This document shows positions 1,075 through 60,889 of a DNA stretch of 64,000 nt, in pieces. The notes under the pieces were generated by a model that did no database searches, had not been told where the DNA came from, and worked only from the letters and a program-made list of their open reading frames with translations. A program made the translations under genes and the position numbers. How positions within the stretch are numbered: position 1 is the stretch's first letter; the number at the start of each line of letters is the position of its first letter. Source of the DNA: Amphiscolops sp. MND2022 (Eukaryota); the NCBI GenBank assembly GCA_964187785.1, contig OZ076409.1:74278001-74342000 (forward strand). Reading direction: 5' to 3'.

Positions 1075-4000
1075 TCCTGTGTTTTCGGTTTTCCTACTCC
1101 TAAATAGGCCCCCTGAATTCCGGGATCTCCTAAACTATCCATACGATTTGGCTGAAATTTGGCACACGTACCCCCCTCGGCACGGTGAAGATGATTCCTT
1201 ACTGACGTTTTGCCCGCTAAACATTTTTTGTTGACCAAAATAACGGTTTTTGGTGGAAAATTTTCAACTTTTTTTAAATTTCATCTTATATCTCGCCACG
1301 GGTCAACGCTAGCGCTTCCAAACCTTTCTAACGAAAGTTTGCAAACTGTCTCAGGAATGCTGTGTGAAAATTTCAGCTCAATCGGACCTGAACTCGAGAA
1401 GATATAGCGTTTTTCCGGAGCGGGGGGGTTTCATTTTTCTAACGGTCCAGCTTATCTTTGCCATTTTTTCGAAAATGCACTCGCCTAAAGGCCTCCCCTG
1501 GCCGGTTTTATTCCCAGCAAAACCATTTGGCCCTAAATACGAAGTTTCAGCGTTCCAGCATTCCCGGGCGAAAAGTTGTGGGACTTAGAAAATTTCAAAA
1601 AATTTCAAAAAAATTTTTTTCCGTTATTTGGGCCCCCAAAGTGGGGGAAAAGACCCCCCAACCAGAAAAGCAAGTGAATGCATGTGCCAAGCCCTTGTTT
1701 AGAGGAGAAAAATGCCGTTTAGAACGTCTTTTTATCTTGGCTCAACGTTGACTTATGACGTTTTGAAGGTGATGTTTGGAGGTGTAAAGCAAGTGAATAG
1801 TAAACGTTATGAGTATTTATCTGATCTGAAAGCTATTGAGATGCAATATGGTTTGCTCAAAACGTAATTCATTGCAGTTTGGCAATCAATCAACACCCTT
1901 TGTTGTCGTTTGACATACTTTTTTGTTGTTATAATAAAAAATTTTGTGTATTTATTCATTTTTTTCTCATCAAATAACTTGAAACAGTTGAGTACATTCC
2001 ATCCCCCCCTTCCGGGGGAGATGAGAATGTACTCGCAAAAAGCACCGAACTACGGCCCTTACCTTCCTGAGCTACGCAGTATAAAGATTGCATATTGGTT
2101 CCGACATTTTGATAGAGTTAAATCTTGGTAATCTGTCTGGGTATGCAGAAAAACCAGCACGTGCTTTTTTATACCAAGTTGCTTACAACGACAATTATTT
2201 TATATCAACGCCCCCATATTTATCAACGCCCCCCGTCCGTGGGCATGCCGAGGCATGCCCTTCGACGACGTATACCAAGATATGTTCGAGCGCGTTAGCC
2301 TAGGTGCCGGGATTTTCTATTCGACAAGTTTGCGCGCCTTGGGGAGGGTCCCTTTGCGCGCTTTAAGATCCAGGTGTTTCCAACTCCTAAACGGGCATGT
2401 GATTTCGACGATCTCCTAAACTAGCCATACGATTTGGCTGAAATTTGGCACACGTACCCCCCTCGGCACGGTGAAGATGATTTCCTACTGACGTTTTTCC
2501 CGCTAAACATTTTTTGTTGACCAAAATAACGGTTTTTGGGGTAAAATTTTCAACTTTTTTTAAATTTCATCTTATATCTCGCCACGGGTACACGCTAGCG
2601 CTTCCAAACCTTGCTGACGAAAGTTTGCAAACTGTCCCAGGAATGCTGTGTGAAATTTACAGCTCAATCGGACTTAAACTCGAGGAGATATAGCGTTTTT
2701 CCGGAGCGGGGGGGTTTCATTTTTCTAACGGTCCAGCTTATCTTTGCCATTTTTTCGAAAATGTACTCGCCTAAAGGCCTCCCCTGGCCGGTTTTATTCC
2801 CAGCAAAACCATTTGGCCCTAAATACGGAGTTTCAGCGTTCCAGCATTCCCGGGCGAAAAGTTGTGGGACTTAGAAAATTTCAAAAATTTTCAAAAATTT
2901 TTTTTTCCGTTATTTGGGCCCCCAAAGTGGGGGAAAAGACCCCGCAACCAGTAAAGCAAGTGAATGCATGTGGAAAGCCCTTAGTTAGATGAGAAAAATG
3001 GCGTTTAGAACGTCTTTTTATCTTGGCTCAACGTTGTCTTATGACGTTTTGAAGGTGACCGTTAGATACGGAAAATTGATGTTTTGAGTCTTTATCCCAT
3101 CTGAAAGCCACTGAGATACAACATGTTTTGCTCAAAACGTATTTCATTGCAGTTTCGCTGTCCATTAACACCCTTTGGTGTCTTTTGACGTATTTTTCTT
3201 TTCTATAATAACATTTTTTCTGTGTATTTATTCATTTGTTTTTCATCAAATAACTTGAAACAGTTGAGTACATTCCATCTCCCTTCCCGGGGGAGATGAG
3301 AATGTACTCGCTAAAGGCCGCGAACTACGGTCTATATCTTCCCCAAAACAAAAGAGATTGAAAATTGTTTCATTTTGTGGAAAAAGTTCTTCTTTTTGTA
3401 CACTGTGACTCGACAAAGTGAACGTTTCTTACCTATTTTGAAACTTCCCTCACCAAAAACCATCTCTAACGTCAGCGCCCCCCTACTTGCATCAACGCCC
3501 CCCGTCCGTGGGCATGCCGAGGCATGCCCTTCGACGACGTATACCAAGATATACCTGGAGCGCGGTAGCCGCTAGGTGGCCGTGTCTTTTCGACGTGCTT
3601 TTGCATTGAGGAGTGGGTAGGGCCCCGCGACGACCTAGAAGAATTGGATGCTCACCGAAACGTGCAGAATTCTACGAGATCTCATAGTTTGAGCCATACG
3701 ATTTTTCTGAAATTTGGCATGTGGCCTGGAATTGGTGAGTAGGTAAAACGTGTAGAAGGTAATTTTTCCCAAATTCCACTGTGAGAGGAGATATGGGCAA
3801 ATAACGGACCCAAAAATGGCAAAAATGCACATTTTTCAACTTTGTCAGCCAATATCTCTTTTCCAGGTGCCCGTAGCGTTCCGCACGTGGACATCAATAT
3901 TGCTCAGCGCTGTTGGAGGAGTGCGTGGACAAATTTTGGTTTAAATCGGACTTAAACTTGACGAGAAATTAACGGTTTTTTGGGCGTTTCCGGGGTAAAT

Positions 4001-7000
4001 TTTTTAACGGTCCAGCTTATCTTTGCCATTTTTTCGAAAATGTACATGCCTAAAGGCCTCCCCCTGGCCGAATTTACTCCCAGCAAACCCATTTGGCCCT
4101 AAATACGGAGTTTCAGCGTTCCAGCATTCCGGGGCGGAAAGTTGTGGGACTTGGAAAAATTTCAAAATTTTTTCAAAAATTTTTTTTCCCGTTTTCCGGG
4201 CCCCCAATGAAGGGGAACGACCCCCCAACCAGTATTTTGAGTGAATTCATGTGGAACGCCCATGTTTGGAGGAGAAAAATGCCGTTTAGAACATCTTTTT
4301 ATCTTAACTTGACATTGACTTATGACGTTTTGAATGTGATGTTAGGATATATGAAGCATGTTAAAAGTTGAAGTTTTGAGTCTTTATCTCATCGGAAAAC
4401 CATTGAGATACAAGCAGTTTTGCTAAAAACGATTTTCATTGTAGGTTAGCAGAGTATTAGTACACTTTGATGTCATTTGAGTATTTTTTTCTTCTATATA
4501 ATAACTGTTTTTATGTATTTATTCCAATTTATCTCATCTTTTAACATCAAGCAGTTGAGTACATTTCATCTCCCTTTCGGGGGAGATGAGAATGTACTCG
4601 CTAAAAACCTAATGCTATGGCGCCAATGTTTGGATGGGAAGTTTTCTATGCTTTGAAAAAAGTTATTTTTAATTACTTGATTTTTTAAAACAATAATTAA
4701 CATGAAGTACATTACTTGCTCCTACTACTACCACCATACATCTCTAACGTCAACGCCCCCTGCTTGCATCAACGCCCCATCGTCCGTGGGCATGCCGAGG
4801 CATGCCCTTCGACGACGTATGCCAAATGCCCAGTGCCACGCAGTCTTTTCCCGCTAGGTGGCCGTGTCTTTTCGACGTGCTTTTGCATTGAGGAGTGGGT
4901 AGGGCCCCGCGACGACCTAGAAGAATTGGATGCTCACCGAAACGTGCAGAATTCTACGAGATCTCATAGTTTGAGCCATACGATTTTTCTGAAATTTGGC
5001 ATGTGGCCTGGAATTGGTGAGTAGGTAAAACGTGTAGAAGGTAATTTTTCCCAAATTCCACTGTGAGAGGAGATATGGGCAAATAACGGACCCAAAAATG
5101 GCAAAAATGCACATTTTTCAACTTTGTCAGCCAATATCTCTTTTCCAGGTGCCCGTAGCGTTCCGCACGTGGACATCAATATTGTTCAGCGCTGTTGGAG
5201 GAGTGCGTGGACAAATTTTGGTTTAAATCGGACTTAAACTTGACGAGAAATTAACGGTTTTTTGGGCGTTTCCCGGGTAAATTTTTTAACGGTCCAGCTT
5301 ATCTTTGCCATTTTTTCGAAAATGTACATGCCTAAAGGCCTCCCCCTGGCCGAATTTACTCCCAGCAAACCCATTTGGCCCTAAATACAGAGTTTCAGCG
5401 TTCCAGCATTCCGGGGCGGAAAGTTGTGGGACTTGGAAAAATTTCAAAATTTTTTCAAAATTTTTTTTTTCCCGTTTTCCGGGCCCCCAATGAAGGGGAA
5501 CGACCCCCCAACCAGTATTTTGAGTGAATTCATGTGGAACGCCCATGTTTGGAGGAGAAAAATGCCCTTTAGCACATCTTTTTATCTTAACTTGACATTG
5601 ACTTATGACGTTTTGAATGTGATGTTAGGATATATGAAGCATGTTAAAAGTTGAAGTTTTGAGTCTTTATCTCATCGGAAAACCATTGAGATACAAGCAG
5701 TTTTGCTAAAAACGATTTTCATTGTAGGTTAGCAGAGTATTAGTACACTTTGATGTCATTTGAGTATTTTTTTCTTCTATATAATAACTGTTTTTATGTA
5801 TTTATTCCAATTTATCTCATCTTTTAACATCAAGCAGTTGAGTACATTTCATCTCCCTTTCGGGGGAGATGAGAATGTACTCGCTAAAAACCTAATGCTA
5901 TGGCGCCAATGTTTGGATGGGAAGTTTTCTATGCTTTGAAAAAAGTTATTTTTAATTACTTGATTTTTTAAAACAATAATTAACATGAAGTACAATACTT
6001 GCTCCTACTACTACCACCATACATCTCTAACGTCAACGCCCCCTGCTTGCATCAACGCCCCATCGTCCGTGGGCATGCCGAGGCATGCCCTTCGACGACG
6101 TATGCCAAATGCCCAGTGCCACGCAGTCTTTCCCCGCTAGGTGGCCGGAAATTTTTTTTTCAGCAAAATCTTTGCCATTGGGGGAGGGGCCCCGGATGGC
6201 CAGTAGTACGGTATAGCTTCCTACCAAATCCAGATGGAAAAAACGTGATTTTGGAAACTAGCCGTCAGAATTTGCTCAAATTTTGCATACGGCTTCCTAT
6301 GACAATCCTAAGAACTAATCCCTACTGGCATTTTGCCCAAAAAACGCAAAAAGTTGGTCAAAATCTTAGTTTTTTGGTCAAAAAATGGCGTTTTTTCGAA
6401 AAAAAATTTTTTCAGAGACAATTACTCGTAACTGGTTCACCCAGCGCAAAAACGCCTAGCTGATTTATTGTTGGGCACTTCATGAGGAGTGCGTATACAA
6501 ATTTTCGTCCAGATCGGAAAAAAAATGACTAAGTATTAGCCGGAATTCGGACGCATTTTTTCGCAAATTTTTGAAAACCTAGTCTATCTCTGCCGTTTTT
6601 TTGCCCAGATTTTTTTCCAGGTCCTCTCCTAAAGGCATCCCCTGGCCGGTTTACTTCCCAGAAAAACCATTTGGCCCTAAATACGGAGTTTCAGCGTTCT
6701 AGCATTCCCGGGCGAAAAGATGTGGGACTTAAAAAAAATTCAAAATTTTTCAAAAATTTTTTTTTTTCGTTTTCCGTCCCCCCAATGAAGGGGAACGACC
6801 CCCCAACGAGGATTTTTGGTGAATTCACGTGGAAAGGCCTTGTTTTGTGGAGAAAATTGCCGTTTAGAGCGACTTTTTATCTTAACTTGACGTTGACCTC
6901 TGTCGTTTTGAATTTGATATTAGTATGTGTTGAGCATGTGAAAAGTTGATGATTTCAGTTGTTCTCTCGTGTTCAAGCCATTGAGATACAAGCGGTAGTG

Positions 7001-11397: not shown

Positions 11398-12665
11398 GTG
11401 CCGGGATTTCTATTCGTTCAAGGAAGTGGCGCGTGTGGGTAGGGCCCCTGGCGCGCTCTTGTGTTTCGGGTTCTCCTACTCCTAATTCACACCCCAGATT
11501 TCTCGGATCTCGTAAACTATCCATACGATTTGGCTGAAATTTGGCACACAGCTCCGTTGGAACAATGTAAGAACAAATCCCTACTGACGTTTTGCCCGCT
11601 AAACATTTTTTGTTGGTCAAAAATGCGATTTTCCGACAAAATTTTTGACTTTTTTTTCTTTTTCAACTCATATCTCGCCACAGGGTCACGCTAGCGCTTC
11701 GCAGCCTATGATCTTTTTTTGTAGGGCGTTGTCTGTAGAACACGTATGCCAAATTTGGTGGCGATCGGACTTAAACTCAGCGAGATAGAGCCATTTTTTA
11801 GGTGCATTTTTTGACATTTTTTGCATTTGCCGATTTATCTCTGCCATTTTTTGCCCAAATTTTTTTTGAGACACTCTCCTAAAGACCTCCCCTGGCCGGT
11901 TTACCTCCCAACAAAACCATTTGGCCCTAAATACGAAGTTTCAGCGTTCTAGCGTTCTCGGGCGAAAAGTTGTGGGACTTAGAATAGTTTTTATGGTAAC
12001 GCAAAATGTGTAAAGTCAACTTCAGGCCTCCCAAAGTCAAAGAACTTCCACACAACTAGGATTGCAAGTGGATGCATGTGGAAAGTACTCGGATAGACGA
12101 GGAAAATGAGCTATAGAACGTCTCTGTATCTTAATCTGACGTTGACTTATGATGTTTTGAATGTGGGCTTCCTAAGGGGTCCCAAATTGAAAATTTTTAA
12201 AGAAAATTAATATCGTCAAAAATTCATCGGAATGTCTGCAATATACAGCAGAGCATGTTCAATTGTAGCTGTCTAATGCATCAACGCCTTTCAAGGTCTT
12301 TTAACTCAGTTTCAAAATTTTGTACACTGTATTATTCATCCGAGAGCACAAAACAGTTGAGTACATTCCATCTCCCCTCCGTGGGAGATGAGAATGTACT
12401 CGCTAAAGTCCAGGTGCTACAGCCCATATTTGTTTTTTTGCGGCGCTATTTATGCTAGTGCGCACACGTATTAACTTTTTACCTGATTTTACTTTTGTCA
12501 GTACTTTTACTTTGACTTGACATATACTGAACATTATGTCCTTCTATCATACACATGACTAACGTCAACGCCCCATCCTTGCTTCAACGCCCACCGTCCG
12601 TGGGCATGCCGAGGCATGCCCTTCGACGACGTATGCCAAAGATATTCCCGAGCGCGTTAGCCTAG
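11398..12665 (+). mobile_element. Single 1268-bp unit lying between 2-kb units; its 5' ~800 bp is the closest relative of the autonomous element's 5' end
   Basis: It shares diagnostic stretches CACACAGCTCCGTTGGAACA and AAAGTCAACTTCAGGCCTCCCAAAGTC with 48874-49670 and is bounded by CTAG|GTG junctions. Confidence 0.85.
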
Positions 12666-15600: not shown

Positions 15601-18600
15601 GTCGGTCCCAGCCAGGGAACGTTAGGTAACTTATTGTAGTACTCATTGAGATGAGTTGGGGGACATAGTTTCAGTCACCCCCCGTTACCCCTTAAGACCG
15701 GAAATGACCGTTATGTGAGTAAATTTGCCGTTTTTGTCCTATTTGAAGGGCATTTAAATGCGGAAGGAGTGGTAATCGGTGCTTGGACACTATATGAGGT
15801 AAGGGAGGATATGAGGCGAGCATTCGGAAATAACCGTTATGTTGACCCCAAAGTCCCCCTGGTACCGTAAACGACCGGAAATGGTCAAATTTTCTGTTTA
15901 TAGGGTACAAATGTTTGGTATTTTGTAGATAAAAGTATCTATTAGGTGTGTCGACGGTCTGCAGTAGTGAACATAGTCATGAAACCTTGTGGGGGGTAAC
16001 GGTATATAGCACCGGAAGTCCAAACCGTTGGAGACAGGATAGGTTTTTTGGTTTTAAAATGTCTTTCGGCGTACTTTTGTCGACTATTAAGGACTACTTT
16101 TAAAAAATTAAAGTTTCTCCATATAGTTTTAGAGACTCCGAAACCTCAACCAACATAACCGTTACCTCATGATAGCCTTTCAAGTTGGCCTGGTGTCAAC
16201 TTCGAAGGGCTATCCTTCAAAAATCGTCAATCAAGTATGTTTTTGGGTATGTTTGTATCATTTTAGAATCAAATAGAGCTTCAAGAAAAGTTTTCCAACG
16301 ACAAAAACTATGTCGTGATGATTCCGTTATCTGAATAATAGTTAGCAAATTGTTGAGAAAATTGATTTTTTCCATATAAAATGTGTCCTAATTGCCAGGA
16401 AACCTATTTAACTAACAAATGGTATTAATTGGAATGTATGTAACAGATTTATAAAAGTTCAAATTGAATATTACCTTTCAATATGGAAGCTGAAACGTAA
16501 TATTTTAGTTTAATTAACGTCAACGCCACACACTTTACATCAACGCCCACCGTCTGTGGGCATGCCGAGGCATGCCCTTCGACGACGTATGGCAAATCCC
16601 TTCTAACGACGCCCGTACATCCCGGGCTAGGTGCGGGGGGGAAACCCCAACAAAATTTTTGGAGGATTCGGGTAGGGTCCTGAATCCGAGTTCAGTGCTG
16701 CCAGCTTTCGTTAAGAAAATTTGGATAGGATTCGGGATCTCGTGATCTAACCATAGGTTTTTAAAGTTGGAGCGGCCCCCACCAGATTTTCCGAAAATTA
16801 GCGCCCCCCACCGGGTTCCATACCCCGGAAAATTTTTTTCTGGCCACACGGGCGACCGTTAGGGGGTCATTTTAGGGGTAAATTTCATATTGGGCCACAT
16901 AACTTTTTTTCTGTTGATTTAAAACTTTGGGACCCTGCTAAAAGTTTCTTGGCCGTGTTGCAGGGGCCCCGGAGGTCCAAACCAAATTTTTCAATCTTGA
17001 AGCTATCTCCAAGTACCCCCCCGCCCAAAACGTTATTTTTCCGGAAACGCAGGTTTTAGACCCGGAAGGAGTCGTCGGAGCGCGGGGTCGTTAGGTGATG
17101 TATTGGGGACGGCCTTGAGACGAAGCGGGGGACATGTAGTTTACCGACCTCGGTTTACCCCTCGGACAGGAAATGACCGTTATATGAGCGGGAAAAATGC
17201 CCCCCTCCACGTTTTACCGCTATTTCCGGTGTGAAGGAGTGGGAGTAGCGCGTCGGGTGCCATATATCAAAAGTAGGTTTAAACAAGGACCTATCGGAAA
17301 CATGTAGTTTGGGACCCTCTGGACCAACCCGTTAGCGGGAAATGGCGCTTCCGCTTCCTTTTTTTACTGCTAAAACCGTAAAATGGGCATTGAGGGGTAA
17401 ATATCTCGTGAACGCGTGGAGCAATCGTGTCCATCACTACTACAAGGTTTCATACCCATGATATGGTGCCTTCAGGGGGGCAAACAGATTTCCGCTATCT
17501 ATCACCGTTACTGACTTGGCCCCCCAGCCTAACCGCTATGTGACCGGAAATGTCACTTTTTGAGCCCAAAGGGTCGGTCCCAGCCGGGGAACGTTAGGTA
17601 ACTTATTGTAGCACTCAATGAGACGAGTTGGGGGACATAGTTTCAGTCACCCCCCGTTACCCCTTGAGACCGGAAATGACCGTTATGTGGGTAAATTTGC
17701 ATTTTTTATACTCTTTGAAGTGCATTTATGTGCGGAAGGAGTGGTAATAGGTGCTTGGACACTATATGAGGTAAGGGAGGACGTGAGGCGAGCATTCGGA
17801 AATAACCGTTATGTTGACCCTAAAGTCCCCCTGGTACCGGAAGTGACCCGTAATGGTCAAATTTTGTGTTCAAAGGGTACAAATGTTTGGTGTTTTATGG
17901 ATAACAGTGCCTATCAGGTGTTTCGACGGTCTGCAGTCGTGAACATAGTCATGAAACCTTGTGGGGGGTAACGGTATATAGCACCGGAAGTCCAAAACTT
18001 TGGAGAAAGGATAAGTGTTTTGGTTTTAAAATGTCTTTCGGCCTACTTTTGTCGACTATTATGGTCTATTTTTGAAAAATAAAGTTTTTCCATATAGTTT
18101 CAGAGACTCCGAAACCTCAACCAACATAACCGTTACGTTATGATAGCCTTTCAAGTTGGCCTGGTGTCAACTTGGAAGGGCTATCCTTCAAAAATCATTA
18201 ATCAAGTGTGTTTTTGAGTATGTTTGTATTACTTTAGAATCAATTAGAGCTTCAAGAAAAGTTTGCCAACGACAAAAACTATGTCGTGATGATTCCGTTA
18301 TTAGAATAATGGTTAAGAAAATGTTGATAAATTTGATTCTTTACATTTCAAATGTGTCCTAAATGCCAGAAAACCTCTTTACCAAACAAATGGTTTTGAG
18401 TGAATTGTATATAACAGCTAATAAAAGTTCAAATTGAATCTTACGTTTCATTATTCAAGCTAAAACTTCATAACATAGTTTAATTAACGTCAACGCCACA
18501 CACTTTACATCAACGCCCACCGTCCGTAGGCATGCCGAGGCATGCCTTTCGACGACGTATACCAAATTCCACCCACACAACACCCCCGAGCGCGGTAGCA

Positions 18601-48873: not shown

Positions 48874-51210
48874 GTGCCGGGATTTCCATTCGATAAGGAA
48901 TTCTGCGCGTGTGGGTAGGGCCCCTGGCGCGCTCCTGTGTTTTGGGTTTTCCTACTCTAAATTCACACATCAGTTATCTCGGATCTCGAAAACTAGCCAC
49001 ACGATTTGGCTGAAATTTGGCACACAGCTCCGTTGGAACATTGTAAGAACAAATCCCTACTGACATTTTGCCCGCTAAACATTTTTTGTTGGTCAAAAAT
49101 GCGATTTTCCGACAAAATTTTCTTTTTCAACTCATAACTCGCCACAGGGCCACGCTAGCGCTTTGCAATCTATGATCCTTTTTTGTAGGACATTGCATGT
49201 AGAACACGTATGCCAAATTTGGTGGCGATCGGACTTAAACTCGAGGAGATATAACGATTTTTTAGGTGCATTTTTTGACATTTTTTGCTTTTGCTGATTT
49301 ATCTTTGCCGTTTTTTGCCCAGATTTTTTTTGAGACACTCTCCTAAAGACCTCCCCTGGCCGGTTTACCTCCCAGCAAAACCATTTGGCCCTAAATACGA
49401 AGTTTCAGCGTTCTAGCATTCCCGGGCGAAAAGTTGTGGGACTTAGAATAATTTTTTGGAAACGCAAAATGTGTAAAGTCAACTTCAGGCCTCCCAAAGT
49501 CAGGGAACTTCCACACAACTAGGATTGCAAGTGGATGCATGTGGAAAGTACTGGGATAGACGAGAAAAATGAGCTATAGAACGACTCTGTAGCTTAACTT
49601 GACGTTGACTTATGACAATTTTAGTGTGAGCTTGCTAAGGGGTCCGAAAGTCAAAAATTGAAAATTGAGTTATTCCAAAGCAAATACTCCTTTATATAGG
49701 CTAATTAGGTATCAGTAACGTGAAACACGGTTGTACGGAGCGATTATTATCATAGGCGATACGGTTCGTTCAAAAAAATGTCCAAAAATTTTTTCTCTTT
49801 TTTCGTAGGTTTTTTGTCTAGGATTTTTTTCTTTGGTTTTTTCCTTAGGTTATAGGTGTAGGTTATAGATTAGGCTTTTTCTAAGGTCCTGTTTTGCTTT
49901 CCCTGTTCACTGCATAGTTTGTTTTTAGTGGCAGAAGAAGACGACGACGACCAAGCATACGAGTTTTTCTTTTTTTTCCTTGGGTTTTCTTCGGGTTAAT
50001 GGCTATCCCGAAACCAGGTGCTCCTGCTCGAGGGCTTCTCGGGCGCTGGTTTCGTGTATGGGGCTTTCCCCCCCCAGTAGGTAACCTCTGCCCAAATTTT
50101 CAAACGTCCCTCGTAATTCGCATTTTGCCGGTGTCTTTTTTTTACGGGCGTTTCGTCGAAAAAGATAGAATTTTTCTCGGAACCGGCAAAATCGGAAAAT
50201 CAATCACAAAATAAACGACGTCGAGAAATCAATCAGACTTAACGGCGTCCAGTTGCTACAAAGAAGAAGTACAGATTAACCATGCTTCAGTTTCAGGTGC
50301 CAATCAATCAAGCTCAAGATGTCTTTTTTGTAACTTATTAAATAGTCCATAAAATTATGGAAATTAGGAAAATTTTCAAAGGTTGGTTTTTTTTTGAAAT
50401 TTAATGCAACTTATTAACATATGTGCCAAAGCTTTTGAAAGCATTAGGAGAAATCAATATAAAGTAAACCAATATGCAGTTTAACTGTTCTAACTTCCTT
50501 CAGTTTTAGTTCACAGATGAAGATTCGCCGTAGCGATACGTAACGTTTTTTGTCTAAATCGAATTTGCGGAGACTCAATCTGCCTATCGTTCGCACGGTC
50601 GTTATTGAGCATAAATTACGCTCATTGAAAAAGTGCGTGATCAGCGTCGTTCAATTTTTACGTGTAATTATCATAGGTGCCCATATGTTAAATTGTAAGA
50701 ATAGAGGTAATGGGTTTTCAAAATCCGGCTCATCAGAAGTTAGCTTGCGGCGTTATGCTGAAGGCCCTTCTGATGATGCTATGTCCCCCCTTTCCTTTTT
50801 TAGTGGGTAACCTATGCCCAAATTTTTTTCCAGCAATTTTTCCCAGCATTTTTGTTTTTTGTGAGTCTTAACCAAAATAATTTCTGATACATATTTTTGA
50901 TTAAATATTACTTCTTAAAGTAGCTTTTCATTGAATGGTTTTAATACAATCAGAATTGTTTTTCCTTGTAAAGTTTTTTTGTAATATGAGTTTGTAACTG
51001 ATGTACATGAGAATGAATTCCACCAATAAAAGACTCGAAACCTCTTGTACTGTATGTTTGATGTATGTTTTTTTTATACTGAGAGTCAAGTAGGACATTA
51101 CGTCTCTCGATCAAATCATAGATTTTCTTCGCTCTTTTATTTCGTTAATTGCTATTTCCCAAGTGGAACCGCTTCACACATTTGATTTTGCAAAGAAACA
51201 TTGAACAAAG

Positions 51211-51444
51211 GTATTGTTTTAGCATATTTAGAATCAAAATTGAATTTTTCACGTTTGAAAGATTATAAGATTTACAAGTTCTCTGATTTTATCCATCGTC
51301 TAAAACTTGATTGACTCGATTTTGGTAATTGTTCCAGTGGCGCTTCAACTATTAATTCGATTTCATTAGCCAATTCGGTTGATCCGTATCAAATTTTAGT
51401 CCCAATGAGATACTGAAATGTTCAATTTCGTTTCATATTTTCAG
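51211..51444 (+). other. Possible 5'-UTR intron (or trans-splice acceptor) just upstream of the RepHel ATG
   Basis: A pyrimidine-rich TTTCATATTTTCAG|G ends at 51444, 4 nt before the ATG. A candidate donor AAG|GTATTG lies at 51210/51211. Confidence 0.4.
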
Positions 51445-51448
51445 GGAT

Positions 51449-54400
51449 ATGCCTCCAAGGAGAAATCGGAGTGTTAGAAACAAGTGCTCCCGGTGCCGTG
51501 TGTTTATCCCTCAGTCTTCGACTTTGTGTGCCAGTTGTGCATCTTCCTCCGCCGAGGTAACTCATGACAACGAAGACAGCAGCAGTGTTTCTATACCCAA
51601 CGAAGACAACCCTCGGAACATAGTTTACCCTCCTCGTTGTACATTATGTGGATTACATGAACAGTCACAAGGCCAACTTTGTTGTTTTTGCTGTCCTGTT
51701 ACTTTACCCGTTTGTACAGATGCAGAATGTCAAAAGTGCCGAAGAATTACCTGTTCATCACTTAATTCCATTTCTATGACTGATGTAAAGCAGACTGCAT
51801 TTGGTTGCCGATTACCGGGAGAAACATCTGATTTTGCAAGACTGTGCAACGAGTGTAGTCATTACACAACACATGGCTTCCAATCGCCATGGAGAATTAT
51901 TTGGCCCTGTGTGGTATTAGATTTCCTCCGTGGAAAATACAATGGAGTTGCTGATGGAAAACCATTCCATAAAGTGTTGCCTACTTCTATATTGAAACAA
52001 TATCAACATCTGTTGCAGATTAACACTGATGAAAAAGAGACTGTTTTTGCTGACTTGACACACAAACTCCAGGAATTCACAAATCTAAAAGAAGAACTCA
52101 AAATTGAAGGTTTGCAAAAAGCTCATAACAAGTACTGTTTTCCAGAAGTTCGCTGTCCCTTTGGTTGTACTGAGTTTGTTGGGGACACGGGATTAATACC
52201 TTTGCAGTTCTTTCTTCAGATGTTAGACCAAAACTTTGCATTTAACAAGATAAAATGGAAAAGGCGATTACGTTGTGTTCGACCTGATTGGTTGTGTTCA
52301 TACAATCACAACGATGTCTTCAACGTAAGACCACACATTGTTATCGACGAGAAACAAGGACTGTGTCTTGCAACCTGTAAATTTCACAACGGGGGATCGC
52401 ATCAGTTTTTCGTCCATCCTCCTACAAATCCCACTGGTAGATTACCCTCGAAAAATGCTGATCGTCTTGGGCCTGCTACAGTTAGTTACAACTGTTACAA
52501 ACCAAGCAAGCCGAATTTTTCCACTCACACGTTTTCAATGGGTGTGGCCAAGGGTAGTTTCTCCGGGATTAGTTCGACTACAATTGCCTGTAAGCGAAGG
52601 TGGGATATCGCATTTGGTGAAGACGATGTTGTGCGAGAAGCTCTTTGTTCAAATAACCGTCTGGATATAAAGCCACTCCTACAACAACTGGTAAACAAAG
52701 GAGAGATTTCACAGAATCTCTTCGATAGCATTACATCAAATGAAGGTTTGCCTGACGATCAAACAGTTCTGGAATGTTTAAAGACTGCTACATCCGTCCC
52801 CTTCGAACTAGCTCTTGCATTAAAGAAAATTCAAGAAGAAGGAATAAGTGTGAACTATTTTCCGGTTTTCTCCCAACCTTTTACAAAACACGGATGTGAT
52901 CCACCTGACACAGTTGTAAACACGTCAATGCCGAAACATTTATGGCTTTATGCTGTAATGTTTGCTGTGAGTTGCAATTTCCATTTGTCTCTTTTGAAGT
53001 TCATTGCAACAGATACTTCTTTAAAAGATATTTTCCCTCTAATGCTGAATAATGATGGTAGACTGGTTGCAAAAAAGAAACGAGAACTTGCAGAGTTTTT
53101 ACAAAGTCAACCGCAAGATCCCAGTTATGACATGGTTGATAGTTTGCAACAATTGTTATCAACAATATCTTTCGTCAAACACTTCAACGTAACTGACAGA
53201 GGAAGTGTTGAATCAAATTTGAAATCTCTGACCGACGAAAAAATTGTTACATTCATTACCAATGCAAGGAGAAGGGATGATGGGTATTTGCCGGATAGAG
53301 TGGTAACTACGAATAGCTCAACAACATACGAGCTACGATCGATTGCTATCCTTGAGGGCGGTAACGTGAAAACCATCGTTAGACATGGTAACGAGTATAA
53401 TTGTTGGTGGATATACTCTACAGCTCATGAGACTCCAACAAAAATGAAACTTGAAGACCTTGTGGAGATGAGTCATTTTCATTCAAATTGGATGTCGTGT
53501 CATTACGAAGTCATTGGTTCAGTTGACATGCAGAGAGCAAAATACCAGTACTTGGAATATTTGGGAGGCCAGGGACGATTCATTTGTGACGATCATCATG
53601 TCCCGCTTACTGTAGCTAGAAATGGTACTCCGACTCTTTGTTCGTTCAGTCCCAGCTGTCAACGAAAGCCTGCTTGGAATTGCCCCTCGGAAAACTGCTT
53701 GTCGTCAGTCTGCCGCACTCATTTCAGACAACACCAACTGAGCAACGAACATCTGTTTGTCAAATGTCCCACTTCAAATAATGAGGTTGTTCGTTCACAA
53801 CCTGCTGAATCTTGTGATGATGATGATGATGAAGTTGTTTCTGAACCAGAATCAGAATACGATGAATTTTCTTTTACAAATTTCACAACCGACGCTGGTC
53901 ATGTTGACAATATGACAAATTGTTTGGCCACAGATTCTGGAGACATGCCGTCAGTCGTTGACAGTATTGACACGTCAATTCCTGCCCACATTTTGCTAAA
54001 CACAGATTGTCACGTACTAGAAAGGAAGAATTACAGAAATGACCGTTCCAAAACAAGTTCACGATTTTTACAAAACATTGTCGCAAGTTCTGGTAATTCC
54101 ATCCCTCTCATTTACCCTGATGCAGCGCTCTTCCCTACTCACTATTATCATGAACAGACAGACAACACTATTACTGGCGCTGTTCCGGCTCCTCTGTTTT
54201 GTGATAAACAGAGCAAACACTTTCTCTTTGCAAGCATTGAGGATCATAAACGATCAGCTGTTCTGAACCCAAATCTTTTGCAGTCAACCGACGTTAGAAG
54301 TATCCAGACTTCCTTCGACACCGTCCTGAATAAGCGCCTCACTTTCTCCGATACACGTTTGGTTCTCATTCGAGGATTCCAAGAAGTGACTGTGAAGACG

Positions 54401-57400
54401 TCCAAATCAATAACACCAAACAATCCAAAACTTCAATTTGACCAGGCAGATTCCAGAGTACGTGTAAATGAATTGGCTGCAATGTTATCTAAAGAACCTG
54501 CTACATTTTTCCTGACACTCACCTGCAACCAGAAAAATCACTTTGGGGTAGCACCAATTTTTGAAGCTATAGAAAATCGATTCAACAGAATCAAGAAAGA
54601 AGAGTACGAGAGAGCGGTCCAAGCTGAGATGGTGCTACTAACAAGAGCCTGGTATCGATCAGCTGAAGCTTTGATGGAATGGATAGAAAAATCTCCTGAT
54701 CAACCGCTTGGAACAGTCACCAAAATTTGGTATCGCTATGAGTTCCAATCTACCAAAGGGAACTTACCGCACATTCATTGTGTTATATGGACAAAGGAAA
54801 GCAAAGCAGAATTGCAACACAAGGTTTCATGCTCCGGATCATCAGCTTTATTCGAATTGAAAAAAATCGCTGCTGAAACAAATGTTATTAATTGTGATCA
54901 AGTTTTCGATTTGTGGACTCAACTGATGACAATTCAAACACATTCCTGCGAAAAGGCAAATTATCGCTGCCACAAAATTGTCAAAGACGATGGGTCAACA
55001 ATATGCAGAGTTCCCCGTTACCCGCATTCAAACCAGTATTCTTGGAGAAAAGTCCCATCAAGCCATTCGGAGGAAGCATTGCAAGTTCTTCATTACCTTG
55101 ACTTGGCAACACCCTCGAAGTCTCATGACGATACCTTCGATGTTTCAGACAGTCTTCAAGGAGGCAAATTCGAATACCCTGCCTCAAGTGACGAGCACCT
55201 TTCCCCTTTTAACCCACTTATTTTTGTCGCTACGATGTCTTCCCAAAACCTTCAATTGTGTGACGAATACCTGTCTGCAAGATATATTGCAAAATATGCA
55301 GCAGGAATTGAAGAACGAGCTGATGCACGTGTTGATCCTGTCTCCTTCAATGAAATTAGAGTTCACACTAAAGGAATCAATAATTCGAAAATTTCCAGTT
55401 GCCGTATCAAAGAAAAAAGTACAGATAGAAAAACAATCGTTCAGATCATTCCTCTCGTCGAAACAGTTTGGTGGTTATTAAACTTCAAATATGTTAACAG
55501 TTCTGTTTCGTTTGTTCATTTATCGACTCTTGAAAAGTCAGAACGACCGTCTTTCATCATACCCGGAAAAAATACAAACCCTTCCCAGCCATTACCTGCA
55601 CATGTGACAAAAAGTTTCAGTTTACCACTGTCGCGCCAATTCACCCAATCGCAGCTGTTGGTTTTGAAAGATTCTATGACAAGTGAGCATTCTAACTGCA
55701 AAATGACAATTTTTAGCGGTAGGCCACCTGCGCTTTTGTGTGTTGATAACCCTCAACTGTATTTCACTTGGTTCAACAGAGTTAATATTCGACATCCCGA
55801 GGATACAATGAAGCTTGATGTTAACATTTCAAAATGGATAGACGTTTTTGGGCGTGCTGTACACTTGAGACGTTGTTATCTTGATGAATTTTCCGCTCAT
55901 GTTACCAAACTGAGAAGAGAGGGACATAACAACTTGTACCGATTCGATGAAGATACTTCAATATTGTTTTTACAAAACGACAGTTTGGGGTTAAAAACGA
56001 TTGACGATACTCCAGTTCAAGTAGTGACTTCGAATATTGTGCCAAGTAACCGCCGAAGATTTTTGGTGCACTTCGTTTTATCTAACGGAAAGTTTGAGAC
56101 AGAACCAGATCTATTCAATCATCTTAGCATGCTGGAGGTTTTTATCAACTGCAAGTTACTGCCATTAAAAAGTTCTTATACAATACAAGACGCATGTGAT
56201 TTAGTGAAATTTTATGTTTTGACGGAACTCAAGTACCTTCCTGGTGCAAGCAGATCGTTCGATCGTCATTTGTTAAGTTGTTACGAGTTGATCACCAATC
56301 TCGTTCTTAATAACCAGATTCATACCGAAGCTTTGCCATCAACTCTTCATTCAGAACTAACCGAAAACGCTGAAATTGCCTACATTCTTCACAGTAACGA
56401 AAAACGAGAGCGAAGCGTTCAAGGTTGCCTCCTAAATCCTGCTTTGATGCCATTGCAACCACACAACGACTCTTTTGTGGCAGCCACCCGCAGTAACCCG
56501 TTTGTGTACAATTTTCCGTTTCCTCGAGCTCCCGGACAGTCCGACGAATCAAACACTTTTCAACAACGTGTGTTCAATGGGTGCATTCAGAAATTGACTA
56601 ACTTCATTGAAACAAAAGACGGTTTCATAAAACATCAATTGTTTTTGGGGCGTCCGGGAAGCGGCAAAACACTCATCTGCACGATGATATATCTGGAAGC
56701 TGTAGCAAAAGGTCTCAACTGTGCAATAACTTGTCTAAGCGGAGAACGAGCCCAACAACTCGGTGGTGAACATGTCCACAAGTTGTTCAAGTTCAGAGTA
56801 AACAAATTTCAAAATCCTGAATTAATGGCTTCTCAGAGTTTGAAAAGTCTTCTCAAGGATGTCACACGGTTCACTGAGCTGGAACGCCTGGATGTACTAT
56901 TCATTGATGAAGTGGGCCAGCTGAATTCTGAATTGATGATAGCTATGGAAATTGTGCTACAAACTGTTAGAGACAACAAATTGCCAATGGGAGGGGTCTT
57001 TACCATCCTAACAGGCGACCCGAAGCAATTGCGCCCTCCACAAGGATCATTGACATGGTTGTCACCGAAGATGCTGACAAATTTCGATTTCCACTACTTT
57101 AGACACTATGTAAGAGCAAAACCTGGATTGTTGCGAGAGATACTGACTAAAATGGACGAAATTGATATCAGCCCAATCGAAGCATCAAGTATTGCAAAGG
57201 AAATTGTAGCCAATTGTAATATCCATTCAACTTGGGACGATATTGGTGACAACTTTGATATGCGTGTATTCAGCACAAGAGCTGCTGAAAAACAAGCTGT
57301 TACACATCATTTTGAAAAAATTTTGGCTGACCAAAGCTGTGCAAAAGTCGTGTTTACTGCCAATGATGAAGAGAGTTCTACTGGATCGTCAATTTGGCGT

Positions 57401-58435
57401 CCGGCAGGTGACATCGAACAAAAATTCATCGATTCCACATCCATCACTCCCCGACAACTGCTCTTGTATAAAAAAGCGCTTCTAAGATTTACAGCCAACC
57501 TTCCCAACATTCAGGCTAGGCAAGGACAATTGTGCCTAATTTTGGAAATACCAACCGAAACAGCATCTTCTCTGGACGTTTGGATCGCACCACCAGGTTG
57601 CCGGACCGCCGCAAATTTCGACGAAAATAACCTAATTACATCTGGTTGGCGCAAAGTCTCTATATCAAAAGTGTTTACACCTGTCATGACGAACCAATGT
57701 AAATTCCTAAGGCGATACTCTTTTCCTCTCAAGAATTATGTGGCATCCACTATTCATAAATGCATTGGTGACACGTTCCCAAAGATTGTTACCAAAGTTT
57801 CACTGACGGACAAACATTACAAAATTTGGGAAAAGGAGCAACTTCTCGTGTTGTTGAGTAGAGTCAGCAAGCTCGACGACATAACGTTCGTTGGTGAAGA
57901 ACACGAAATAGAATTAACTTTAACTGCTGCCATTCAGCAAAAGTCCTGCTGGGGAACTTTCATCAATGACCTTCTAGAAAAATTGGCCTCTACTCCCTCT
58001 GACCTGACGCCGCCAACACTCAACCTCCTTTCTTCAAATGTTGTACCTTGGAACATTGTCTTGCCCGAAGACAATGTAGGCTTTGTGTATCTTCTGATAA
58101 GCACGAAGATTCCGAATGCTTATTGCATTGGAGAGGCTCTGGAAATTCGGCGAGAATTGAAACTTATCAACTCTGGAAATGGGGCAAGTGAAACGCGCCC
58201 AATCGAACGCAGGCCATGGGCAATCGTAGCATTTGCAACAGGTTTCAACACCGAAGATTCTTCCGGCAACAACACGCAAAGAAAATCGCTTGTATCGAAG
58301 ATGAGAACGCAATTTACTTCCCTTGGAATAAACTTCACCACCGTGGAATTGTTTGAAACGTTCAAAGAATCAACGAGAACATATGCTGACGAACGTGATT
58401 TAAATTTGAGAGTTATTCAATGTGCCAGTGTTTAA
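51449..58435 (+). CDS. Helitron/Helentron-like RepHel transposase, 2328 aa: Cys-rich N-terminus, HUH/Y2 Rep, PIF1-family (SF1B) helicase, C-terminal GIY-YIG(SLX1)-like domain
   Basis: Single uninterrupted ORF. Rep motif 1 TFFLTLTCNQ (aa ~1019), motif 2 YEFQSTKGNLPHIHCVIW (HUH, aa ~1108), motif 3 YIAKY (aa ~1279). Helicase Walker A GRPGSGKT (aa ~1734), Walker B LFIDEVGQ (aa ~1818), plus TGDPKQLRPP, FPLKNYVASTIHKCIGDT and QLLVLLSRV. The C-terminal GFVYLLIS...YCIGE...RR...N.G.GA..T....RRPW...F..GF resembles SLX1-type GIY-YIG. Confidence 0.93.
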   Translation: MPPRRNRSVRNKCSRCRVFIPQSSTLCASCASSSAEVTHDNEDSSSVSIPNEDNPRNIVYPPRCTLCGLHEQSQGQLCCFCCPVTLPVCTDAECQKCRRITCSSLNSISMTDVKQTAFGCRLPGETSDFARLCNECSHYTTHGFQSPWRIIWPCVVLDFLRGKYNGVADGKPFHKVLPTSILKQYQHLLQINTDEKETVFADLTHKLQEFTNLKEELKIEGLQKAHNKYCFPEVRCPFGCTEFVGDTGLIPLQFFLQMLDQNFAFNKIKWKRRLRCVRPDWLCSYNHNDVFNVRPHIVIDEKQGLCLATCKFHNGGSHQFFVHPPTNPTGRLPSKNADRLGPATVSYNCYKPSKPNFSTHTFSMGVAKGSFSGISSTTIACKRRWDIAFGEDDVVREALCSNNRLDIKPLLQQLVNKGEISQNLFDSITSNEGLPDDQTVLECLKTATSVPFELALALKKIQEEGISVNYFPVFSQPFTKHGCDPPDTVVNTSMPKHLWLYAVMFAVSCNFHLSLLKFIATDTSLKDIFPLMLNNDGRLVAKKKRELAEFLQSQPQDPSYDMVDSLQQLLSTISFVKHFNVTDRGSVESNLKSLTDEKIVTFITNARRRDDGYLPDRVVTTNSSTTYELRSIAILEGGNVKTIVRHGNEYNCWWIYSTAHETPTKMKLEDLVEMSHFHSNWMSCHYEVIGSVDMQRAKYQYLEYLGGQGRFICDDHHVPLTVARNGTPTLCSFSPSCQRKPAWNCPSENCLSSVCRTHFRQHQLSNEHLFVKCPTSNNEVVRSQPAESCDDDDDEVVSEPESEYDEFSFTNFTTDAGHVDNMTNCLATDSGDMPSVVDSIDTSIPAHILLNTDCHVLERKNYRNDRSKTSSRFLQNIVASSGNSIPLIYPDAALFPTHYYHEQTDNTITGAVPAPLFCDKQSKHFLFASIEDHKRSAVLNPNLLQSTDVRSIQTSFDTVLNKRLTFSDTRLVLIRGFQEVTVKTSKSITPNNPKLQFDQADSRVRVNELAAMLSKEPATFFLTLTCNQKNHFGVAPIFEAIENRFNRIKKEEYERAVQAEMVLLTRAWYRSAEALMEWIEKSPDQPLGTVTKIWYRYEFQSTKGNLPHIHCVIWTKESKAELQHKVSCSGSSALFELKKIAAETNVINCDQVFDLWTQLMTIQTHSCEKANYRCHKIVKDDGSTICRVPRYPHSNQYSWRKVPSSHSEEALQVLHYLDLATPSKSHDDTFDVSDSLQGGKFEYPASSDEHLSPFNPLIFVATMSSQNLQLCDEYLSARYIAKYAAGIEERADARVDPVSFNEIRVHTKGINNSKISSCRIKEKSTDRKTIVQIIPLVETVWWLLNFKYVNSSVSFVHLSTLEKSERPSFIIPGKNTNPSQPLPAHVTKSFSLPLSRQFTQSQLLVLKDSMTSEHSNCKMTIFSGRPPALLCVDNPQLYFTWFNRVNIRHPEDTMKLDVNISKWIDVFGRAVHLRRCYLDEFSAHVTKLRREGHNNLYRFDEDTSILFLQNDSLGLKTIDDTPVQVVTSNIVPSNRRRFLVHFVLSNGKFETEPDLFNHLSMLEVFINCKLLPLKSSYTIQDACDLVKFYVLTELKYLPGASRSFDRHLLSCYELITNLVLNNQIHTEALPSTLHSELTENAEIAYILHSNEKRERSVQGCLLNPALMPLQPHNDSFVAATRSNPFVYNFPFPRAPGQSDESNTFQQRVFNGCIQKLTNFIETKDGFIKHQLFLGRPGSGKTLICTMIYLEAVAKGLNCAITCLSGERAQQLGGEHVHKLFKFRVNKFQNPELMASQSLKSLLKDVTRFTELERLDVLFIDEVGQLNSELMIAMEIVLQTVRDNKLPMGGVFTILTGDPKQLRPPQGSLTWLSPKMLTNFDFHYFRHYVRAKPGLLREILTKMDEIDISPIEASSIAKEIVANCNIHSTWDDIGDNFDMRVFSTRAAEKQAVTHHFEKILADQSCAKVVFTANDEESSTGSSIWRPAGDIEQKFIDSTSITPRQLLLYKKALLRFTANLPNIQARQGQLCLILEIPTETASSLDVWIAPPGCRTAANFDENNLITSGWRKVSISKVFTPVMTNQCKFLRRYSFPLKNYVASTIHKCIGDTFPKIVTKVSLTDKHYKIWEKEQLLVLLSRVSKLDDITFVGEEHEIELTLTAAIQQKSCWGTFINDLLEKLASTPSDLTPPTLNLLSSNVVPWNIVLPEDNVGFVYLLISTKIPNAYCIGEALEIRRELKLINSGNGASETRPIERRPWAIVAFATGFNTEDSSGNNTQRKSLVSKMRTQFTSLGINFTTVELFETFKESTRTYADERDLNLRVIQCASV
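54503..55297 (+). other. HUH/Y2 Rep catalytic core of RepHel
   Basis: Motif 1 at 54503, HIH at 54770-54778 and YIAKY at 55283-55297; all catalytic residues are present. Confidence 0.9.
56648..57870 (+). other. PIF1-family helicase core of RepHel
   Basis: Walker A at 56648-56671 and Walker B at 56900-56911. Motifs III-VI are recognisable, although V and VI are divergent (TIHKCIG instead of the usual TIHKSQG; QLLVLLSRV instead of QxYVALSRV). Confidence 0.9.
58079..58250 (+). other. GIY-YIG (SLX1-like) domain at the RepHel C-terminus, probably catalytically degenerate
   Basis: GFVYLLISTKIPNAYCIGEALEIRRELKLINSGNGASETRPIERRPWAIVAFATGF follows the SLX1-type pattern VYLL.S…YIG.T…RRL.QHN…GA..T…RPW…..GF (pattern recalled, not aligned). 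Confidence 0.7.
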
Positions 58436-60889
58436 TTTATTTCAGTTTACAAATAATACAATGTAGAATATACTGGCAATGGAACGAAAGATGAAGCTTA
58501 CGAGGTTGCCCCGGTCACGCAGTGAGCCGAGGGCAAGCTCTTTGTGTGACAAAAATCAACATCCACTTTAACTAAAAATTTGCCACTTCGGTTGTCCTCC
58601 TCTTCTGTCATAAAATGTTGAGAGTGGTGTCTGGCTTTTTTCAAGGCACTTACAGCTCCATATCCTCAACTTCGTCGACAGAATTTTTGATTTACTCCTT
58701 GAAAGCTCCTTGAATTACTACCTTTTCTTATATTGGTTATTTCACAATCTCCTTTCCTCATTCGCGTGTTCCAGTGTTTATTTAACGAAGTTTGGTCAAC
58801 AAACTGCTGACGGGCCTTTTTTACTTGGCCTTTTCAATCTAAAAATTTTACCTCCAAGTTAAACGGCAGTTCGCTACTTTATCAGACATGTTATCCTAGC
58901 ATTCATCTTCTCAACACGCTCTAATGTGCAGACATTGATGGAACTGGTGTCTGACCCCCAAGGGTATTAACAGTGCCAATACTTCAATTTGCACAGAGCA
59001 GCTTCAATTGTTTGCCGATCCCTCGTAAAGCTTTATTTGTTTTCCTGCTTTTTGTCTCTTACCAGTCCACGCTTTACATTCAATATTTATGCTAAGTCTT
59101 CATTGAGTTGCATCATCTGGAATGAAGAAATCTGAGTATGGTATATGGTTCAAAAAATCATGAACAAATCTCCTAAAAAAATTGTCCTAAAAAACTCATA
59201 TACAAAAGGAAAGAGTCTAAAATGTTATATTCAACACTAAAATTTATCTATTTTACTTGAAGATTCAATTGAGGATTTAGGAGTTTTCCTAGTATTTTAT
59301 TTAAAAGATAGTCATCAGTAACTAAAGTTATGATCGATCTTTCTAAACATCGATTTTTAGCTTTTTGATTAGAAAAAGTGACAGTGAATATACATAAAGT
59401 TACTTCATCTCTGCGGTCAACACGGGATGTTTTATCAGTCTTTGTGAATCATAATTTATGTTGTTATCATTAACAATTTTGAATTGGATTTCTCCATTAC
59501 ACATCAGCCTAAAATGGGCGATAAATGAAAAGCTCAGTAGGTAAGTTTTTGTTTAATTATTAAATTTAGCTGATAGTTTCGTTCTTGTTCCTCAAAAAAC
59601 AAATTGCTACAACAGCGTTTGCACTAAAAGTTATTCGGGACAGGTCAATATACTTTTACTTCAATTGTTTGAACCATAGAACGATCAGCTAAAGTGTTTT
59701 CTGCTGGAAAAGGATAACCGTCAATCCGGACAGATCTAAACGACGTTTCCTGTTCGTCCGACTTCACTCACCCTCCGCCAAACGCTCAAGTATTCGAATG
59801 TTTGCATGGAAACGTGTTTTTCATAGTGGATATTGCTTTCAAGTATTGATTACTGATGACACTGGGACTTTAGTTTTTTGATGAAAATGGAGAAAAGAAA
59901 AAATACACTGAGTGATCTTGTGATCAACTCACATGTCATTTCTTTCATCCAAATCACACAATTCAAGCACTCCTGTCATTGGTCGCACCCATGATACTCC
60001 AATCAAAAAACCAATTTTTTAAATTGATAACATGTTCAAACAGTGTCGGACGCAAAGAGAGTCCAAAATAAGTTTTTTGAACTGGTCATTTTTCATAATG
60101 CTTTGCAAACAATTCTATTACAGTCACAGCTTTATTCTCACTAGCTTCAATCGTGAACAATTTTCTCAACAAGTGATGATGTCACGCACCTAACTAGTAT
60201 CAGTCCTGCCTTCATTACCGATATGTCCGTCTTGCACTTATGGTTGCTCCCTTCTGAACCTCATCTATGAACTGTGCATAAATCTTCATTGCATCCTGAA
60301 AACGACTCCAGCTGAAACAATTTAACTTTTTATATTCTTTGTTGCTCGCATTGTAAATACTATAAACAATTCTGTCAAATGTTTTGAAGAACAGATTTTT
60401 AAAAAAAGCATTGCATCTAATGCAATGAACGCGGACATATATACAAATTGACGATGGAATTTTTCAAACATGTGTTTTTAGCCATTCAAGTTGAAACTAA
60501 GAAATTAGATAAAGTAGGCTGAAGGCGAGTTTACAAAGTGTTAGTTCGTCTTTGTAGAGCCGTGAATCAGTTATAAATACGCACAAAACTTCCTTTCAGT
60601 GAAACATAATGAAAACATAAAAAATTTAAATTAGTGCTTAGCAACATAACTGTTGTTACTTTATTCATTTTTGGAATTATTTTTTTCGATTGCGTAGGAG
60701 AATCAATCAGTTACGTTATGTTCAAAATTGTCGTCCCCATCGATTGCAACTCCAACGTCAGCTGCTTTATGTGCATCAAGCCGACGTCCCAAACCATTTA
60801 ATAACGCCCACCGTCCGTAGGCATGCCGAGGCATGCCTTTCGACGACGTATGCCAAATAACCAAAAACCGACGCGCACTCTCCCGCTAG

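Follow-up and report, generated by a model that had tools for sequence, protein, structure and literature searches.

Architecture of the transposase and fold of its C-terminal domain

In a 64,000-nucleotide stretch of contig OZ076409.1 from Amphiscolops sp. MND2022 (assembly GCA_964187785.1, positions 74,278,001 to 74,342,000 of the forward strand, hereafter the window), we analyzed a Helitron-like RepHel transposase that carries an additional GIY-YIG domain at its C-terminus. It is encoded by the one long open reading frame (ORF) of the window (51449–58435, + strand), which runs uninterrupted over 2328 amino acids. The core of the Rep (HUH) domain (54452–55297, +) has an intact HIH motif at residues 1108–1110 and both tyrosines of the Y-x3-Y motif at 1279/1283 (YIAKY, 1279–1283), and the Pif1-like helicase that follows (56549–57990, +; boundaries approximate) has intact Walker A and B motifs. 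Helitron_like_N (residues 1002–1113, E 4.5e-8) and PIF1 (residues 1731–1863, E 1.3e-7) were matched above the Pfam cut-off, and the helicase matched Pif1 with E 5e-29 and Helraiser (7lcc) with E 2.7e-20. The protein therefore has what characterizes a Helitron-like RepHel, namely HUH and two tyrosines in Rep and a Pif1-family helicase downstream in the same ORF. As these motifs are intact, the transposase core looks functional, and they are identical or near-identical in all 18 aligned local proteins.

The additional domain (58073–58432, +; residues 2209–2328) begins close to a GFVY motif at 58079 (G2211) and extends to the end of the ORF, whose stop codon ends at 58435. With the C-terminal 137 residues alone, the Pfam match to GIY-YIG was below the cut-off (E 0.093); 9 of 13 homologues exceeded it. 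The AlphaFold2 model of the domain, based on a 49-row alignment, had a predicted local distance difference test score (pLDDT) of 92.1 and a predicted template modeling score (pTM) of 0.86. When Foldseek was run with this model, Slx1 and At-HIGLE came first (E 8.8e-6), and all eight matches at E ≤0.001 were Slx1 or At-HIGLE chains. The independent aligner VIA-align gave the same result, with Z values of 10.6, 10.2, and 9.8 for Slx1/At-HIGLE at root-mean-square deviations (rmsd) of 2.4–2.6 Å over 103–108 aligned residues and a next row of Z 6.6, and the profile of alignment A1 matched SLX1/HIGLE chains at E 4e-12 to 2e-9. An Atlas search, which we regard as a lead only, returned solely GIY-YIG/T5orf172 clusters, under 0.9. 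On the basis of these models and fold searches, we consider it virtually certain that the domain has an SLX1-type GIY-YIG fold. The original prediction, made from the DNA letters alone, had described a RepHel protein with a C-terminal SLX1-like GIY-YIG domain and had named AlphaFold plus Foldseek as the check; the uninterrupted ORF, the model, and both fold searches agree with it, with Slx1/At-HIGLE at the top.

A sub-threshold Pfam match to ArgoMid (E 0.026) was discarded because of the fold searches. The structures ranking next after SLX1, 3j6b_d (Z 6.6) and 6ywe_d (Z 5.8) from fungal mitoribosomes, both with an rmsd of about 4 (window 58016–58432), fall in a range that the aligner rates as a common arrangement. 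In the N-terminal third of the protein (51449–53750), there are several clade-conserved Cys/His clusters with no Pfam family above the cut-off. Directly before the start codon, a T-rich, splice-acceptor-like stretch ends in CAG (51435–51451), which would allow for a non-coding exon further upstream.

Loss of catalytic residues and retention of the domain

The catalytic set of yeast SLX1 consists of Y17, Y29, R39, H43, and E82, and single substitution at each of these positions cripples the enzyme (PMC8287910; see also PMC4407285 for SLX1 residues). We mapped the window protein onto yeast SLX1 through an intact relative. In the alignments, only Y2214 (58088–58090, +), which corresponds to Y17, is retained. 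The other four positions are replaced, with C2226 (58124–58126, +) at Y29, E2236 (58154–58156, +) at R39, I2240 (58166–58168, +) at H43, and V2282 (58292–58294, +) at the metal-binding E82, and the copy thus lacks the residues of an active SLX1-type nuclease. The first three changes had been read correctly from the DNA, together with a possible inactivity, whereas the loss of the glutamate had been overlooked.

The window family, defined as the 90% cluster of the window protein, has 13 members, 12 of which include the domain. In all 12, the Arg and His positions are Glu and Ile, and the Glu position is Val in 11 copies and Leu in one; the Cys at the Tyr29 position is private to the window copy, the 11 other copies having Phe. 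As the catalytic loss is common to all 12 copies, a sequencing error or other local error can be ruled out, and none of the copies has a stop or frameshift in the domain. The window copy is the most diverged of the family, with 74 private substitutions, 4 of them in the domain. From these alignments, the domain is very probably nuclease-dead in the window family. A second family copy is present in two pieces, P0017 (1175 amino acids) and P0024 (919 amino acids), perhaps on the same contig as the window protein.

To place this family in a wider context, we searched with the helicase plus domain as the query, which gave 3367 proteins at E ≤0.001 and 244 at 1e-30; the best 150 of these 244 were used and, together with the first homologues, 163 proteins were scanned. 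The domain was present in 145 of them, and the 18 without a match were mostly ORFs ending early. We conclude that the fusion is widespread and, judging from these sequences, probably an ancestral part of a large Helitron-like transposase clade. Catalytic state was bimodal in the 133 domain-bearing representatives that were listed: all five residues are present in 101, a single one is missing in one, 28 lack at least two, and three are truncated. The homologue collection and catalytic scoring proposed with the original prediction thus separated 101 intact from 28 multiply altered domains. All 28 keep the Asn, and their replacement residues vary by lineage without a common substitute. One relative is from Perkinsus olseni (NCBI name). 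Neither metagenome nor viral contigs yielded a relative in locus searches with single proteins, and an alignment search found none in viral contigs. No sequencing run was listed for the element, a result without bearing on its expression.

A tree built from the helicase alone, with 106 intact and 38 altered rows (144 in total; single-residue changes were scored as altered), required at least 14 changes of state. Because intact domains are in the majority and SLX1 provides an outside reference, we interpret them as losses that occurred repeatedly. Around the window family, the losses are graded, from intact domains (P0003, P0060) via replacement of only the Arg by Ser (P0002, P0005, P0007, P0008; P0007 and P0008 end before the Glu) and loss of Tyr, Arg, and His (P0004, P0006) to loss of all four in the window family. 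The intact P0003 and P0060 form one 9-row clade with the dead or partly dead families, with 100% support in the Shimodaira–Hasegawa-like approximate likelihood ratio test (SH-aLRT). Natural intact/dead pairs are 66–69% identical in the helicase. Some wholly dead clades are deep, such as one of 8 rows with 100% support, and another lineage, altered even more deeply (P0012, P0243, P0244, P0246–P0250, P0252), keeps a full-length domain. The sister-family ORFs P0007, P0008, and P0231 all stop at an identical position of the domain, ahead of the Glu helix, which could reflect an intron or a shared truncation.

Despite the catalytic loss, the domain is well conserved. Among 11 full-length copies of the window family, its mean identity (94.9%) was as high as that of Rep (95.4%) and the helicase (95.6%), whereas three N-terminal blocks reached only 84–90%. 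Across the clade, 36 of 37 dead domains were at least 124 residues long, length and core residues were kept down to helicase identities of 45%, and Ser2218, Asn2241, Pro2256, and Phe2266 were kept at 93–100% in 30 dead domains. For disjoint closest pairs, we divided the divergence of the domain by that of the helicase; the median of this ratio was 1.28 for intact domains (38 pairs) and 1.61 for dead ones (12 pairs; p 0.018). Taken together, the faster divergence of dead domains and their retained length indicate that the constraint is relaxed yet clearly present, and it is likely from the sequence comparisons that selection has kept the domain after catalytic loss. That the domain is retained had also been predicted, and the within-family conservation, the kept length, and the absence of stops and frameshifts agree with this view.

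With respect to a possible reason for retention, the AlphaFold2 model of helicase plus domain had a pTM of 0.88, which suggests a fixed arrangement of the two. When helicase and domain were folded as two separate chains, the score was 0.59 versus 0.00 for the best control, with a contact agreement of at least 59% and a partner pLDDT of at least 77. In the calibration of this test, 51 of 78 solved pairs and 2 of 108 mismatched pairs reached the mark, and the support in our case was rated weak; scores of at most 0.60 were obtained with only 5 of the 78 solved pairs, yet with all 4 of the 180 mismatches that passed.

Element ends and the tandem array

The ORF lies in a head-to-tail array (1016–63456, +) that runs off both window ends. 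It consists of non-coding units of ~1.27–1.32 kb and ~1.98 kb that share the same ends, and the several unit families, of ~1.3 and 2.0 kb, occur in mixed order. At all 38 junctions, which are all on the + strand, units start with GTG and end with CTAG, the boundary being deduced from co-variation: the sequence left of CTAG tracks the upstream unit, and the sequence right of GTG tracks the downstream unit. The units therefore run GTG…hairpin…CTAG in the direction of the ORF. This co-variation also ruled out a minus orientation of the units as Helitron2 elements with asymmetric inverted repeats, and a unit boundary left of the hairpin. A palindromic hairpin is found at each of the 38 junctions, starting 58–73 nt before CTAGGTG, and the pair at its base shows a compensatory change from G-C to A-T at 18529, 20525, 32042, and 60820.

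One array unit (48874–60889, +; 12,016 bp, starting with GTG and ending with CTAG, boundaries likewise deduced from the junctions) contains the transposase ORF and is the putative autonomous element. Its 5′ region (48874–49668, +; 90% identity to the unit starting at 11398) shares ~790 bp with most of the ~1.3-kb units, and its 3′ terminus (60796–60889, +), a conserved block with the palindromic hairpin (core 60820–60837) and the terminal CTAG (60886–60889), shares ~90 bp with each of the 36 short units, whereas none of these matches the element in its subterminal 3′ region. Judged by these shared ends, the 12,016-bp unit is probably the autonomous member that moves the short units. As the unit families alternate in a cassette-like manner, insertion into the junction seems a better account than plain rolling-circle concatemers. 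Within the window, we found neither an empty site nor an array edge, and Rfam gave no match. An imperfect hairpin ~70 nt past the stop codon (~58502–58540; −16.7 kcal/mol for a 76-nt segment with DNA parameters) lacks a partner end and was not taken as the 3′ end of the element; a role as a signal in the transcript or for internal termination is conceivable.

The ends do not agree with those of Helentrons (HLE2). Asymmetric terminal inverted repeats and T-rich ends are expected for HLE2, and GTG…CTAG was found at 38/38 junctions; we detected no TT ends, no subterminal inverted repeats, and, in the 12-kb unit, no terminal inverted repeat (25 longest of 83 pairs). The 3′ end follows the CTRR rule of canonical Helitrons (HLE1), with CTAG at 38/38 junctions, and the 3′ CTAG with an upstream hairpin is shared with HLE1 and with the Phytophthora proto-Helentron (PMC4067079, PMC3627910). 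Unlike in these elements, however, the 5′ end is GTG and not TC or TT, and the main hairpin is 40–55 nt from the end instead of about 11.

Regarding the role of the domain at these ends, one relative was informative. L001, which is 32% identical and has an intact GIY-YIG domain, was the only relative with usable flanking DNA. It has CTAGGTG plus a downstream G-rich motif (6015–6065), 3.4 kb past the stop codon and 60 nt from the contig end, without the hairpin sequence of the window at this site. The junction pattern, which matches 37 of the 38 window junctions, gave one match in L001 versus none in 200 shuffles; it was tuned after L001 had been seen, and this is one locus. A narrower alignment retained only 2 loci from 270 pattern matches. 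Matches of the junction pattern in 20 viral contigs were judged to be due to chance, as none encodes a relative (tblastn). The L001 match suggests that the end junction is a trait of the clade that is independent of the dead state. The idea that the altered domain contributes to self-targeting, which was part of the original prediction, was consequently not borne out, as this CTAG|GTG junction also follows the gene of a protein whose nuclease is intact. Downstream of its RepHel stop codon, L001 further contains a 38-nt repeat in four copies (2743–3057) and, ahead of the putative 3′ end, a 356-residue open frame without a Pfam match (4032–5099).

Role of the domain and relation to known systems

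The explanation that we moderately favor is that an ancestral SLX1-type nuclease has been repeatedly disarmed and kept as a structural cap, and that the arrays arise from Rep. In intact members, the nuclease may cut the branched DNA that single-strand insertion leaves behind, for example by nicking the opposite strand or trimming flaps. This step would be dispensable where replication or nucleases of the host, or sister elements that are intact, cover it, and after its loss the domain would stay because it packs against the helicase. As judged from the models, such capping is somewhat more probable than other main reasons for retention. In the window family, where basic residues are kept, the domain may still contact DNA without cutting it. 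An excised circle is an established Helitron intermediate, and the mixed array could most likely come from Rep itself, as each CTAG|GTG resembles an excised-circle junction and would hence be a substrate for further insertion.

Several points weigh against this explanation. Dead domains evolve faster than intact ones (p 0.018), and constraint was gauged at the protein level and only on proteins still matching the domain profile. Genuine losses could hide among the 18 of 163 proteins without a domain match, most of which look like truncated ORFs and one of which (P0012) is degenerate. The tree, a quick LG+G4 search with SH-aLRT as its sole support measure, cannot separate loss from gain. The support for docking is weak, consisting of model confidence alone for two halves of one chain. 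In addition, the retained basic residues of the window family fit DNA binding as well as packing.

The latter point leads to the model of the original prediction, in which the dead domain is a module that binds branched DNA or hairpins and steers insertion into the element's own junctions, thereby building the mixed array. Basic residues are indeed kept at or near SLX1 site I (R2235, K2238) and in the basic TRPIERRPW stretch, and the hairpin is present at all 38 junctions with a compensatory pair change at four. SLX1 sites II and III bind DNA independently of catalysis, and the GIY-YIG domain of MSH1 binds branched DNA with no nuclease activity observed (PMC6902002). However, the site III pair K21/R22 aligns with I2221/P2222, and the junction of L001, one locus matched with a pattern tuned afterwards, indicates that the dead state is not needed. 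Moreover, the median net charge was −1 in 30 dead and +4 in 102 intact domains (as these rows share ancestry, the p value makes the difference appear too strong), and such a clade-wide loss of positive charge argues against general DNA binding; the window family is exceptional in this respect, with a net charge of +5 and 11 K/R versus 6 D/E, like its intact sisters. Altogether, we regard a DNA-binding module that directs insertion as quite unlikely.

It is also unlikely, although compatible with the cap, that the dead families are partial cheaters that borrow the cut in trans from intact sisters or from host SLX1/MUS81. The position of the intact P0003 and P0060 beside dead or partly dead families in the fully supported 9-row clade would fit this, as would the apparent presence of several families on the same contigs, for example on one of 1,394,692 bases with six ORFs, which is suggestive only. 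Yet intact and dead families are only presumed to share an assembly, and the wholly dead 8-row clade shows that some dead lineages are deep. Neutral decay of a functionless relic, to which the higher divergence ratio of dead domains (1.61 versus 1.28) and the private substitutions of the window copy could point, is improbable in view of the 12/12 family copies without stop or frameshift, the within-family conservation equal to that of the enzyme cores, and the length and core residues held at helicase identities down to 45%. Finally, Y2214 and N2241 are kept and E2236 lies in the pocket, as a nuclease with rearranged chemistry might require; as each single catalytic substitution is already crippling in SLX1 (PMC8287910), four positions are changed here, and the substitutes differ among lineages with none in common, such an activity is highly improbable.

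In its fold, the domain agrees with SLX1 and At-HIGLE (Z about 10 and an rmsd of about 2.5 Å over about 105 residues), and it has the first Tyr, the Asn, and the RPW…GF segment in common with them, whereas four of the five catalytic residues are replaced and the domain is fused to a transposase helicase. The window protein is also not an SLX1 orthologue, as it ends at residue 2328 with the GIY-YIG domain and therefore has no RING domain. With Helentrons, in which an apurinic/apyrimidinic endonuclease is C-terminal, the protein shares the architecture of RepHel plus C-terminal nuclease, and OTU domain matches, as in Helentrons, were found in relatives (4/13 at E <0.003, one more above the cut-off). 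The nuclease family is unrelated, however: Pfam gave no Exo_endo_phos match in the window protein, whose C-terminal domain is GIY-YIG. DUF6570 was undetected in P0001 and 13 homologues, where a weak match could be missed. The comparison with Helentrons made in the original prediction is a loose one, as the ends differ from those of Helentrons. HLE1 and the proto-Helentron lack a C-terminal nuclease, and although tandem arrays of Helitrons are known (PMC4067079, PMC11934779), the units here belong to mixed families in shuffled order. The ends and the domain therefore fit neither Helentrons nor canonical Helitrons.

A GIY-YIG domain in such an element is not without precedent. HELIANO recorded its capture in HelenSM92, an HLE2 family of Sphagnum magellanicum, although its text on 20 recurrent domains does not name GIY-YIG (PMC11417382). 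HelenSM92 is likewise a Helitron-like element with RepHel and GIY-YIG; its terminal inverted repeats are short and it inserts at TT, unlike the window element with GTG…CTAG in a tandem array, and the comparison is by description, the position, frame, and catalytic state of the domain not being given in that text. Prior description of such a fusion, which would count against the original prediction, is thus given in part by this one HLE2 family (PMC11417382). The parts searched of PMC6431247, PMC13085455, PMC11934779, PMC12001565, and PMC13565253 do not connect GIY-YIG with Helitrons, and in our search, which lay outside most subscription papers and Repbase Reports, we found no published account of a repeated, conserved inactivation of this domain. 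What was already known is therefore GIY-YIG in an HLE2 family, and what is added here is the repeated conversion to a conserved pseudo-nuclease together with an unusual end structure.

A more far-reaching and, in our view, rather doubtful possibility is that RepHel-GIY-YIG proteins form a separate rolling-circle class, neither HLE1 nor HLE2, with GTG…CTAG ends, that inserts at its own end junctions to form cassette-like mixed arrays, and whose nuclease has often been converted to a conserved pseudo-nuclease that took on another task, for instance to hold the helicase on the junction like a clamp. We know of no experimentally assigned role for the extra nuclease in Helitron-like elements; the intact/dead pairs and the graded losses make this role testable. 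If the end junction is indeed the target, eukaryotes would have a site-specific insertion system based on HUH. The repeated loss of catalytic residues with the domain kept suggests that the domain has a second, non-cutting job.

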